Below, piece by piece: positions 23,611-26,809 of a stretch of DNA of 53,949 nt. The DNA is taken from assembly GCA_964424225.1 (NCBI GenBank), contig CAYRID010000004.1:1-53949 (forward strand), given 5' to 3'. Source of the DNA: an uncultured Geobacter sp. (GTDB lineage Bacteria > Myxococcota_A > UBA9160 > JADFDR01). Each line of letters opens with the position of its first letter. Position 1 is the stretch's first letter. The position numbers and the translations under genes were made by a program. The notes beneath the pieces were generated by a model. The model saw nothing but the letters and a program-made list of their open reading frames with translations. It made no database searches and was not told where the DNA came from.

Positions 23611-23669
23611 GCAACAACCCTAGCAATCTCGCCGGTGCTTCTCCTAGACAGAAAGCGGTTGAATTGAGT

Positions 23670-25019
23670 TTATGCCGATAGAATTTTTGCGACGTCGATC
23701 TCTACAAGGGCCTCTGCATTGCCGAGGATTTCGCGTGCATCGGCTTCGGGCGCAGAGAGATCGCAGAGAATCGGTGGATCAACGCGCTGACCCGCAGCAT
23801 CTTGGACAATCCACACGGTCGGACTCGTCGCATCGAGATCGTTGAGTTTGGCGATGATGGCAATTTCGTCCGATGTCAAACGCACGAAATCGCCGACGGG
23901 ATAAGCACCGAGCATGGCGACGAAACTGGCCACAGTTTCGGGCGCATAGGCTTTGCCAACAAGGCGTCGAATAATGCGGATTGCATCACCGGGATGGCGC
24001 GATTTTTGATAAGGGCGCGTAGTCGTTAGCGCATCGTAGCAATCGGCAAGAGAGATGATTTTGCTCAAAGGATGCGGAGTTTCTCCACTACACAATTTTG
24101 GATAACCTGTTCCATCGAAGCGAATATGATGATAGAGCACGATTTTGCAGGTTTCGTCATCGACGTTGCCAAGTTCACGCAAGAGTTCTTCGCTCAGTAC
24201 GGGATGTTTTTGCATGATTTCGAGTTCTTCCGGGGTGAGCGCGCCGGGCTTTTTGATGATTTTTTCGGCGGTGCGGATTTTTCCGATGTCGTGCAATAAA
24301 CCGGCGAGCGCAACACGATGCAAGTCTTCACCGGTGATTCCCAAATGACGTGCGTAGGCCAGCGCGAAGACCGCTGTTGTGATCGAGTGCGAATAAGTGT
24401 AGGGGTCATATTTTTTTAGCAGCGTGAGTCCGAAAAGTGCGGCGGGTGAAGTGAGTATCATTTCGCGCATGGTGCTCAAAAGCTGCGTTGCATTTCCGGA
24501 AGATGCGATTTTGCCGGAACGGAGTTGCGAGAGGAGATCGAAAATTTCACCGAGTAATTCTTCGTAAGCAATGGCAACCAAAGCACGCACGTCGCCTTCG
24601 TCGGGAATTTTTTCACGAAATATGACGTGCGGCATGGCGTTTTGCTGTGCGGCGTCGAGGAGAGAAATCTTCTGTACTTGATCTTGCGAGGCGAGCGCGC
24701 GCACCAAGCGTTCTAACTCGGAGAACGTAACACCCGGCTGAAAAATGATGGCCTCGACATTGGACTGACGTATAGAAGTGTAGACCTGGGGAAATTCTTC
24801 ATTGGCTTCGTAGAAAGGAATTTCGTCAAATACAAGTACATCGTCGAATAAGCCCAGTACGATACGATCGCGCTCTTTGAGCATTGCGGCGAGTGCTGTT
24901 GCGAGGTGTACGATTGGTGTGTGAATTGCGGGATGTCCGGCCTCGTAAAGTTTACAGGTGCGCACGGCACTTCGAAGATGACGCAAAATAATGTCGAGCC
25001 GCTGCCGAGTTTCGCTCAT
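23670..25019 (-). CDS. HD-GYP domain cyclic-dinucleotide phosphodiesterase with uncharacterised N-terminal module
   Basis: YTYSHS, LLHDIGK, HHIRFDGTGYP, ADCYDALTTTRPY; metal-binding motifs look intact. SD-less ATG overlaps the upstream stop. Confidence 0.88.
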   Translation of the reverse strand: MSETRQRLDIILRHLRSAVRTCKLYEAGHPAIHTPIVHLATALAAMLKERDRIVLGLFDDVLVFDEIPFYEANEEFPQVYTSIRQSNVEAIIFQPGVTFSELERLVRALASQDQVQKISLLDAAQQNAMPHVIFREKIPDEGDVRALVAIAYEELLGEIFDLLSQLRSGKIASSGNATQLLSTMREMILTSPAALFGLTLLKKYDPYTYSHSITTAVFALAYARHLGITGEDLHRVALAGLLHDIGKIRTAEKIIKKPGALTPEELEIMQKHPVLSEELLRELGNVDDETCKIVLYHHIRFDGTGYPKLCSGETPHPLSKIISLADCYDALTTTRPYQKSRHPGDAIRIIRRLVGKAYAPETVASFVAMLGAYPVGDFVRLTSDEIAIIAKLNDLDATSPTVWIVQDAAGQRVDPPILCDLSAPEADAREILGNAEALVEIDVAKILSA

Positions 25020-26809
25020 GGGACAGCACGGCCTTGTGCACGTTTGCGCAATATGTGCTGAGCCTCACGCTTAAAAATGGGATCTTCTCCCTCGGCAAAG
25101 CGCAGAAGTAAATTTCGCGTTTCATTGCCTGGGATATTTGCGAGTGCCTGTAAGGCTACGAGTTTGAGTTCCGTCATCTTTTGGCGTTTAAAGAAACTTC
25201 GCTGTTCCAAAACGAAGAGCAGCGCGGGGACGGCTTCCAGCAGAGCGATTTGTCCGAGCGCACGAACTGCTTCTTGGGCAAGTTCGAAGTCACCACGTTG
25301 TGTCGCTTGTTGCGCGATGTCTGCAAGTGGTTGCAAGGCATAAGTGGATTGTGTTTTGCCAAGCCAGTAGGCAGCCTGCGTTGCGACTGCGCTTGTTTCG
25401 TGCAAAAGAGCGTGAATCAAAGCGCCAATTGCCGTCGAATCGCCGATGAGTACGAGTGCCTTTGAGGCTTCTTTGGCGAGAGAGGGATCGCTGCTGGTCA
25501 TGAGCTTACGCAGTGTCGAAACGGCTGCGGGATTTTGGATTTCTCCGGCGAGGCGTGTAGCAACACGAGCTGCGCGCAAATTGTTGCCCTGCATCGTGCG
25601 CAGCAAATGAGGTGTGGCTCGCTCGCCGATGGCAATTAAAATGCCTGCAACTTGGCTGCGGTGATTGGGGTCTTGCAGCGTTTCGATGCTGCGCAGCAGG
25701 GCGGGAACAGCATGCTCAGCGAGTTGCAATAAAATTTGTGTCGCACGAATGCGTAGGCTGGTATCGGCCGAGCAAGCACGCGCAATCAAGTCAGCGAGCT
25801 GTGGTCCAGAAGCGAAAGAAATTAAGGCTTCGCTAGCACATCGACTCTTTTTTGTGTCATTTTCCGAGTCTTGAGCAGCTTGCGTGGAAAGTGCCAAGAT
25901 CGTTTGATAGGCCGCATCGGAATCGCCATCTTCGAAAAGCAGCTTGGCCGTCGCGATGGCTTCGGCCGCAAGACATTCATAGGTAGAATCTTCTTTTGCC
26001 TTTTCGAACTGGGACAGCGTGTTTTTTAGGCTGGCTCTGCGTTGATCGCGCAAGGCCTGTTTGGCCGGAGTGAGATTTGGAGGGGGTGCAGCAGACAGCG
26101 AGTTGGTCGATCCAACGCTTTCAAGTGTTGGCGTATCGAGCGTTTCGGGTTCGAGCAGTGCGGCGAGAAGTAGGGCGGGATCAGCATGACCAATTTCAGC
26201 GTTGATTTCGGCGCAGGAAGGAGAATCCATGTCGAGCAAATCGAGTACGTCGCTTTGCTCTTCTTGCGCCGCTGTGGCGGTGTGGGCCGGACGCCCCAGT
26301 GTGATTTCGACGCCGTGTTCCGCCGCAGTGCGAATGCACGCTTGCCGCTTTGCATGTGTCGTTGCTGCGAACTCGGTGTCGGAGAATATTTCGAGCAGAG
26401 CTTGGAAGCCGTCTTGTGTCATGGCCGGAGTGACGCCAAGAGCACAAACGCCGTACGCCGTAAATTCACGCGCGAGTTCGTCGGAGTGCGCGCTTGTAAT
26501 CGGAGATGAATTGACTAAGCGCAACATTTTTCCGTGTAATACCGCTTCGAGAGTGCCATGCCGATCGAGATCGGCGCGCCAAGTACGAAAGCTGCGATGG
26601 AGGATGGCTTGCAGCTGCGGATGCGTGCGTGGATAAAACCGGTAGCCCTTGATTGCGCGCGCGAGTTCGACCCAAAGCGTCGTGACGTCGCTTGCGGTGC
26701 GAGTTTTGGGCAAGGGAAGAATTGTAGGGTTGGCCGCCATGGTCACTGTTTCGACTTTCACTTTTGCGATGCGCGCGTAGTGTGAAAACTCTGCAAGCAA
26801 ACGTTTCAT
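25016..26809 (-). CDS. HEAT / PBS-lyase repeat protein with uncharacterised N-terminal module
   Basis: C-terminal half is repeated helical units such as ASKALVLIG...AIGALIHAL, AAYWLGK, AVRALGQIA, ALQALANI. Start uncertain (26809 or 26740). Confidence 0.78.
   Translation of the reverse strand: MKRLLAEFSHYARIAKVKVETVTMAANPTILPLPKTRTASDVTTLWVELARAIKGYRFYPRTHPQLQAILHRSFRTWRADLDRHGTLEAVLHGKMLRLVNSSPITSAHSDELAREFTAYGVCALGVTPAMTQDGFQALLEIFSDTEFAATTHAKRQACIRTAAEHGVEITLGRPAHTATAAQEEQSDVLDLLDMDSPSCAEINAEIGHADPALLLAALLEPETLDTPTLESVGSTNSLSAAPPPNLTPAKQALRDQRRASLKNTLSQFEKAKEDSTYECLAAEAIATAKLLFEDGDSDAAYQTILALSTQAAQDSENDTKKSRCASEALISFASGPQLADLIARACSADTSLRIRATQILLQLAEHAVPALLRSIETLQDPNHRSQVAGILIAIGERATPHLLRTMQGNNLRAARVATRLAGEIQNPAAVSTLRKLMTSSDPSLAKEASKALVLIGDSTAIGALIHALLHETSAVATQAAYWLGKTQSTYALQPLADIAQQATQRGDFELAQEAVRALGQIALLEAVPALLFVLEQRSFFKRQKMTELKLVALQALANIPGNETRNLLLRFAEGEDPIFKREAQHILRKRAQGRAVP

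Follow-up and report, generated by a model that had tools for sequence, protein, structure and literature searches.

In a 53,949-nucleotide (nt) stretch of DNA from an uncultured Geobacter sp. (contig CAYRID010000004.1 of assembly GCA_964424225.1; the whole stretch is hereafter called the window), two adjacent genes encode a HEAT-repeat protein and an HD-GYP phosphodiesterase that begin with homologous modules, and the same gene pair recurs in genomes assigned to several phyla. We consider it highly probable that the two proteins function together in some way. The two minus-strand open reading frames (ORFs) fill positions 23670-26809, at the coordinates given by an initial inspection of the letters and translated ORFs (the sequence-only reading). 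The HEAT-repeat partner gene lies at 25016-26809 (-), with a longest ORF of 597 amino acids (aa), and is followed by the HD-GYP phosphodiesterase gene at 23670-25019 (-), which encodes 449 aa (Pfam HD_5 E=6.2e-28; matches to PDB entries 4MCW and 5Z7C). The HEAT stop codon and the HD-GYP start codon overlap as ATGA at 25016-25019 (-; sequence cccATGAgc), in agreement with the 4-nt overlap described by the sequence-only reading, and this overlap is expected to couple translation of the HD-GYP gene to that of the HEAT gene.

The shared module occupies 26297-26695 (-) in the HEAT protein, approximately residues 39-171 of the 597-aa ORF, and 24612-25019 (-) in the HD-GYP protein, residues 1-136. 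Both were delimited with AlphaFold2 (AF2) models and hhalign, together with a hidden Markov model (HMM) for the former and a profile search for the latter. The HEAT module carries the motif FYPxxHP and the HD-GYP module LYEAGHP, where the family consensus of the HD-GYP modules is LYPxGHP. The sequence-only reading had aligned the first ~100 residues of the two proteins by eye and placed the modules at 26381-26689 and 24705-25004; the place was right, but both modules are longer than these spans. When we compared deep hhalign profiles, built separately from the N-termini of 71 HD-GYP and 61 HEAT proteins at genomic loci, the two families aligned with 99.5% probability and E=4.7e-23 over 139 columns, and both motif pairs quoted in the sequence-only reading were aligned to one another. 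This profile-profile comparison, which that reading had proposed as a check, is thus significant with deep profiles. A second-generation HMM, made from 154 library matches of the HD-GYP N-terminus, picked out the window HEAT protein (residues ~44-151; 33.3 bits, E=1.3e-9) when run against the 504 ORFs from a six-frame translation of the window, while the second-best ORF reached only E=0.11. Shallow hhalign profiles (7 vs 4 sequences) gave a suggestive result (P=0.0019, probability 14%), in which the 99 aligned columns are those of the by-eye alignment. Neither with the full proteins nor with the N-termini did pairwise BLASTP detect the similarity of the two modules; BLASTP is too insensitive here, and this null result is no evidence against their homology. 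We regard the homology of the N-terminal ~130 residues of the HEAT and HD-GYP proteins as confirmed at the level of sequence profiles. In a tree of 132 modules, the HEAT and HD-GYP types were split with 2 changes, compared with 43.9 for shuffled labels, and the distance matrices of both modules, the catalytic domain and the HEAT region all correlated at r~0.97. Based on these observations, the data fit a history in which one old duplication would have given both modules and the pair was then co-inherited as a unit.

Both modules were modelled with AF2, as monomers, to high scores, with a predicted local distance difference test (pLDDT) value of 90.4 and a predicted template modelling (pTM) score of 0.85 for the HD-GYP module, and a pLDDT of 90.1 and a pTM of 0.82 for the HEAT module (topology H-H-b-b-H-b-H-H-b). 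The two models show the same order of elements, namely two long N-terminal helices, a β-hairpin, a helix, a strand, two helices and a final strand, and the HD-GYP module has an extra short third strand beside the β-hairpin. In both models the conserved [L/F]YPxxHP turn joins the two long N-terminal helices. No positions are better conserved in either paralogue than the Tyr (89% and 100%) and the His (89% and 82%) of this turn.

The sequence-only reading had no name for this module, and none emerged from our comparison with Pfam-A, NCBIfam, PDB and the published census of HD-GYP-associated domains; nor did the Pfam-A, NCBIfam, PDB and Foldseek checks equate it with a characterised domain. Pfam and NCBIfam gave no match to either N-terminus of the window proteins. 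The Pfam scan covered all 132 module segments (71 HD-type and 61 HEAT), and a weak match to DUF5402 in 13 of the 71 HD-type modules was dropped, as it spans 35 residues and scores 13-15 bits where the cut-off is 25 (length and scores taken from two members scanned individually). Profile matches in PDB were to designed proteins only (E>=0.0015) and were dropped as compositional. When we searched PDB with both models using Foldseek, no significant match was obtained (best E 0.39 and 0.68, TM ~0.2). GAF-containing chains recur among the non-significant top matches, a faint echo that gives no fold assignment; these GAF/PelD echoes (E>=0.39, TM~0.2, root-mean-square deviation >13 Å) were dropped, and neither Pfam GAF nor PF11849 (DUF3369) matched the module. 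The census of Galperin & Chou (bioRxiv 10.1101/2021.11.05.467447) includes DUF3391, DUF3369 and MASE9-12 and does not mention HEAT. By the tests against Pfam, NCBIfam, PDB and this census, the module is uncatalogued.

In order to follow the gene pair across genomes, we scanned one genome per species with a full-length HD-GYP alignment, which gave 80 loci at 24-75% identity, and scored every ORF of each locus with three HMMs (module, HD-GYP domain and HEAT region). Starting from HD-GYP biases the sample toward that side, and all loci come from metagenome-assembled or otherwise uncultured genomes, whose taxon labels may be wrong. These labels include Myxococcota, 'Deltaproteobacteria', Deferrimicrobiaceae, Thermodesulfobacteriota, Syntrophorhabdaceae, Nitrospirota, Acidobacteriota, Rokubacteria, Armatimonadia, Planctomycetota and a few others. 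The scan yielded 71 module-bearing HD-GYP genes. A co-directional HEAT gene lies directly upstream in all 63 loci that have at least 1200 nt of upstream DNA, so that the co-occurrence suspected from the window alone holds as a tight pair across several phyla. The module is in the same ORF as the HEAT repeats in 61 of the 63. In the other two (L009:3187-6001 and L067:4195-5905) a change of reading frame divides the HEAT gene between the module and the repeats, and we read it as a frameshift, an assembly error or the sign of a pseudogene. In the 63 loci, 7-96 nt (225 nt in one case) separate the HEAT stop codon from the downstream codon at which the alignment of the HD-GYP module begins, so that there is little or no intergenic DNA between the two genes. 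As an internal control, none of the five HD-GYP genes that lack the module and have enough upstream DNA (L065, L068, L071, L082 and L085) has an upstream HEAT gene. When we started from distant module-HEAT representatives, three of four (L005, L089 and L090) were directly followed by a module-HD-GYP gene. The gene neighbourhood changes entirely from one lineage to another (pgpA-cinA/ruvX-mltG in the window, prkA-yeaH-spoVR in L005 and others in L089 and L090), and therefore the pair itself is the conserved unit.

Two observations concern the neighbours of the pair. Most loci contain a third conserved gene, a convergent HEAT/PBS-lyase-like protein of ~190-220 aa just downstream of the HD-GYP gene, for example L001:5866-6528 (-), L007:2480-3142 (-) and L008:7462-8118 (-), and also in L016, L021, L028, L041, L042, L056 and many others. 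This small gene is found neither beside the window pair, where ruvX takes the place, nor at that place in L006, and tblastn detected no copy of it in the window. In one distant lineage (L005:5449-8987) the cassette adjoins spoVR, DUF444 (yeaH) and prkA, which we take to be a conserved stress-kinase trio.

The distribution of the module was then examined beyond these loci. When we searched 1.84 billion representative proteins by HMMER with the HD-GYP N-terminal profile, 782 proteins matched at E<=1e-3 and 55 at E<=1e-10. Most of the 782 representative clusters are module-HD-GYP or module-HEAT proteins, and since the profile was made from HD-GYP proteins only, the HEAT-repeat proteins were retrieved via their N-termini. 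Among the 73 matches listed with at least 300 aa, 39 contain HD_5, 20 HEAT_2, 2 HisKA, 2 GGDEF and 3 AAA_16, and no Pfam family covers the module itself in any of them. The survey of architectures, also suggested by the sequence-only reading, accordingly places the module mainly in HD-GYP and HEAT proteins, with a kinase and tandem fusions besides. The kinase (L086:1085-3379) has a module-PAS-HisKA-HATPase architecture, with a response regulator directly downstream and no HEAT gene nearby. The fusions P0081, P0125 and P0106 are large single chains with a STAND-type AAA_16 NTPase, two tandem modules and HEAT repeats, and P0081 (L087:3578-7876) also has an N-terminal GGDEF cyclase domain, which independently ties the module and HEAT repeats to cyclic-dinucleotide metabolism. 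A further protein, P0033, consists of two modules in 302 aa. The tandem-module proteins resemble a fusion of the two genes in which a cyclase has replaced the phosphodiesterase, and two modules in one chain are a Rosetta-stone-type hint of pairwise action.

In the HEAT protein, the module is followed by an acidic Pro/Ser/Thr-rich linker (approximately 26030-26296 (-)), whose length varies in the family, and by a HEAT/PBS-lyase-like α-solenoid (approximately 25016-26029 (-)). The solenoid matches HEAT_2 (PF13646) in three stretches, the best at residues 414-481, with E=8.5e-18 and 64.9 bits against a gathering cut-off of 27.7, and HEAT_PBS (PF03130) at residues 513-535 with E=4.7e-6 and 27.1 bits against 20.9. 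Pfam matches are confined to the C-terminal half, with none in the first ~300 residues, and the HMM of the HEAT region matched the homologues at E=1e-30 to 1e-143. Bacterial HEAT_2/PBS-lyase-like repeat proteins are generally protein-binding scaffolds or adaptors. CpcE/CpcF and NblB likewise belong to repeat families whose gathering scores the window solenoid exceeds (PF13646 and PF03130), but the window protein differs from them in its extra N-terminal module, its HD-GYP partner and the lack of a phycobilisome link; assignment as an equivalog of CpcE/CpcF or NblB was rejected, with 37.9 vs 330, 19.6 vs 220 and 16.5 vs 300 bits against the NCBIfam cut-offs. Across 61 homologues the linker between module and solenoid is variable and polar and measures 57-395 aa (median 108). 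Since the linker is long and variable, this argues that the HEAT-protein module would be an anchoring device rather than an allosteric sensor of the solenoid. A short amphipathic motif lies in the linker at ~26120-26160 (-), DPALLLAALLEPE, with DPATLLAELLEPE in the homologues P0010 and P0011; conserved among close homologues within an otherwise variable acidic linker, it may be a short linear interaction motif. The close homologues P0009-P0011 begin (MAANPT/MADS) at the equivalent of the internal Met at 26740 and not at 26809, and therefore ATG 26740 is probably the start of the window HEAT gene, giving 574 aa, with the 23 extra residues of the longest ORF probably not translated.

The HD-GYP catalytic domain lies at 23904-24422 (-), residues ~200-372 as defined by alignment to PmGH (Persephonella marina GAF-HD-GYP; 4MCW/4MDZ), and Pfam matched HD_5 (98.1 bits, cut-off 27.2) and HD (76.6 bits) over residues 200-359. 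It is followed by a C-terminal extension at 23670-23903 (-), residues ~373-449, which is kept in the full-length family alignment and has no Pfam match. PmGH is also the best solved-structure match (4MCW, E=2.1e-27), and a cGAMP (cyclic GMP-AMP) phosphodiesterase, 5Z7C, matches at E=2e-24. The catalytic positions are HD 243-244, KPG 257-259, HH 297-298, GYP 305-307 and RPYQ 335-338. In the alignment to PmGH, the segments lHDIGK, HHIRFDGTGYP and ADCYDAL are kept, and KKPGAL aligns with LKPGKL of PmGH; the KPG motif contacts the second base (bioRxiv 10.1101/2021.11.05.467447). The catalytic motifs HD, KPG and HHxxxDGxGYP are hence intact, and the protein has no recognisable sensor domain other than the module, both of which the sequence-only reading had stated.

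Two positions bear on the substrate. First, the Glu that binds the third metal in PmGH (E185) is Tyr in the window enzyme (DPYTYSH vs DPETQNH of PmGH), and the same Tyr is found in 71 of 71 module-bearing enzymes, so that the trinuclear-site signature, a Glu or Asp at this position, is lacking in the window enzyme. Loss of this Glu marks a binuclear class that usually stops at the linear dinucleotide, with documented exceptions (bioRxiv 10.1101/2021.11.05.467447). Second, the guanine-recognition motif is RPYQ (R335-Q338; 24006-24017 (-)) and not RxxK, and the RxY[K/R] motif specific for cyclic di-GMP (c-di-GMP) is absent. At the selectivity position, the 71 family members comprise 54 RxxQ, 7 RxxN, 5 RxxR, 3 RxxS and 2 RxxH enzymes, none with Lys, which gives an Rxx(Q/N) signature in 61. 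This signature shifts specificity toward 3',3'-cGAMP and occurs in 4.7% of the HD-GYP domains in the set of Wright et al. (bioRxiv 10.1101/600031). From these two substitutions in the window enzyme, Gln for the Lys of RxxK and Tyr for the third-metal Glu, we predict a binuclear, cGAMP-preferring phosphodiesterase, and we lean toward a preference for cGAMP. The sequence-only reading had allowed c-di-GMP or cGAMP as the substrate; RxxQ points to the latter, while the motif specific for the former is missing.

When we compared the window enzyme with characterised HD-GYP proteins, each showed both likenesses and differences. The cGAMP-selective HD-GYP phosphodiesterases or GAPs (among them PmxA/MXAN_2061 of Myxococcus xanthus and Bd2325) have the same Rxx(Q/N) type of HD-GYP domain (bioRxiv 10.1101/600031) and are also found in deltaproteobacteria-type lineages. 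PmxA is membrane-bound with a Cache-TM-HAMP input (bioRxiv 10.1101/600031), whereas the window protein is soluble, with the uncatalogued module as its sole N-terminal domain, and the window enzyme, whose activity is predicted, differs from the GAPs also in its obligate HEAT-repeat gene partner. PmGH shares HD, KPG, HHxxxDGxGYP and the Arg of RxxK with the window enzyme. In contrast to its Tyr and RxxQ, PmGH has E185 and RxxK, a trinuclear site, and converts c-di-GMP to GMP; its N-terminal domain is unrelated by sequence to the module, and the alignment covers the catalytic domain only. The Bd1817 family (DUF3391-HD-GYP, 3TM8) is similarly soluble, with one ~120-aa N-terminal domain of unknown function joined by a helix to the catalytic domain. 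However, DUF3391 consists of four β-strands followed by two long helices, whereas the module starts with helices, and no HEAT partner is described for the Bd1817 family. PF11871 (DUF3391) gave no match at E<=10, and none in the 73 full-length members or the 71 module segments.

We suggest that the locus would encode a conserved cytoplasmic two-subunit cyclic-dinucleotide phosphodiesterase system. The product of the first gene consists of the ~130-aa α/β module, a variable polar linker and the HEAT solenoid, and that of the second gene of the paralogous module, a helical linker, the HD-GYP catalytic domain and the C-terminal extension. The two modules would pair as a pseudo-symmetric heterodimer, like the tandem copies in one chain, and their pairing would tether the HEAT solenoid to the enzyme via the flexible linker. 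The HEAT subunit could then recruit the phosphodiesterase to a target or partner, or gate the enzyme. The best candidates for a ligand or partner contact would be Tyr and His in the YPxxHP turn, which forms the tip of the N-terminal helical hairpin. The enzyme would have a binuclear HD-GYP site and would linearise 3',3'-cGAMP, its preferred substrate over c-di-GMP. Physical interaction through the modules, which the sequence-only reading had supposed, is plausible because of the translational coupling and the single-chain tandem module-HEAT proteins, and that reading is supported in part. Taken as a whole, this model of a module-mediated two-subunit system seems to us evenly balanced between right and wrong.

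Here, we need to consider several points that weigh against the model. First, a partial mirror-tree analysis gave a partial r of 0.01, with 213 of 500 permutations as high, and thus no module-module co-evolution beyond phylogeny. Second, the PAS-HisKA-HATPase kinase (L086) bears the module without a HEAT partner; the module can serve as an N-terminal input domain of a kinase without HEAT and is not exclusively a coupler of HEAT and HD-GYP proteins. Third, the HEAT-to-HD-GYP direction of the survey rests on only four cases, and one of these four module-HEAT proteins, with a degenerate LYPPSNP motif, stands alone. Finally, regarding the substrate, the rule that links motif to substrate has known exceptions (bioRxiv 10.1101/2021.11.05.467447), and the selectivity position is occupied by R, S or H in 10 of the 71 enzymes. 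Each protein could use its own copy of the module as an independent sensor.

The last point leads to the alternative that survives best, although we still find it unlikely: the module would be a stand-alone cytoplasmic ligand-binding sensor, and both proteins would sense the same small molecule or redox signal independently. Co-expression would then reflect one pathway and not module-module binding, with the HEAT protein as a separate ligand-regulated scaffold. The input position of the module in the PAS histidine kinase, the near-invariant Tyr and His in its conserved turn and the absence of excess co-evolution are all in line with such a sensor, as are the GAF-type sensor domains among the best, non-significant fold echoes. 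In the HD-GYP proteins the module also sits at the N-terminus, the usual position of a sensor (Galperin & Chou, bioRxiv 10.1101/2021.11.05.467447). However, the long, variable and polar linker of the HEAT protein is ill suited to allosteric transmission, and the strict adjacency of the genes, the ATGA overlap and the tandem-module fusions fit assembly better than parallel sensing.

It is rather improbable that the module is a generic homodimerisation domain, by which each protein would homodimerise on its own and the HEAT protein would meet the enzyme, if at all, via its solenoid. HEAT solenoids typically bind partners on their concave face, which would suit this arrangement, and the proteins in which the module is found, the histidine kinase and the HD-GYPs, are usually dimeric. 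Yet homodimerisation leaves unexplained why the HEAT scaffold has retained the domain of its enzyme neighbour for so long and across phyla, and why tandem copies of the module occur in one chain. That the pairing is conserved synteny without functional coupling, with the likeness of the modules a relic of an old domain duplication, has very little in its favour beyond the origin of every locus in a metagenome-assembled genome or metagenomic contig, whereas the pair has outlasted a complete turnover of its neighbours, its reading frames overlap or abut even between lineages as distant as phyla, and both modules keep the same conserved motif.

In the window, the pair proposed to act as a two-subunit system is flanked by divergent pgpA-cinA-recA on one side and by ruvX-mltG-mreB on the other (gene names by inspection and from the Pfam labels of the syntenic locus L001). 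The HD-GYP stop codon and the ruvX start are separated by 59 nt (23611-23669) without a predicted terminator, and transcription of the HD-GYP gene may run on into ruvX-mltG. The arrangement in L001 is different, with a small convergent HEAT gene between the pair and mltG and no ruvX at that place; an HD-GYP-ruvX-mltG operon would thus not be conserved. An Rfam scan of the window found tRNA only and no cyclic-dinucleotide riboswitch. The closest genome locus, L006 (JADFDR010000001.1), has the same gene pair at 75% identity in a metagenome-assembled genome labelled 'Geobacter sp.', and all of the next relatives carry the label Myxococcota; 'Geobacter' may be an error of binning or taxonomy.

To our knowledge, the HD-GYPs are the less understood class of cyclic-dinucleotide phosphodiesterases, and the signals of their N-terminal domains are mostly unknown. 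Two parts of the system are known from sequence families, namely an HD-GYP catalytic domain that carries the GAP signature and a partner made of generic HEAT_2/PBS-lyase-like repeats. The module family, its sharing by an enzyme and a separate scaffold, and the cassette that crosses phyla are not described in the literature we searched, and this HD-GYP signalling enzyme is new in its input domain and in its obligate partner. The analysis defines a domain family of at least 782 representative protein clusters, with confident models and no entry in Pfam, NCBIfam or PDB, and the cassette gives a testable hypothesis, that an HD-GYP is regulated or localised by a separately encoded partner subunit. 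The whole family is flagged as likely cGAMP-selective, which would extend Hypr-type cGAMP signalling far beyond the few studied model organisms. Tentatively, and at less than even confidence, we go one step further and propose that the module is a new and widespread cytoplasmic input-domain family with its own fold, which forms a heterodimer of two separately encoded proteins and whose YPxxHP tips would bind a signal or partner and thereby switch a dedicated, cGAMP-degrading HD-GYP, kept by the HEAT subunit at a specific target in the cell. If this is true, the HEAT protein would give an HD-GYP enzyme its first described obligate subunit for regulation or targeting, and Myxococcota, Desulfobacterota-type lineages, Nitrospirota and others would contain a broad branch of cGAMP signalling that is as yet unexplored.

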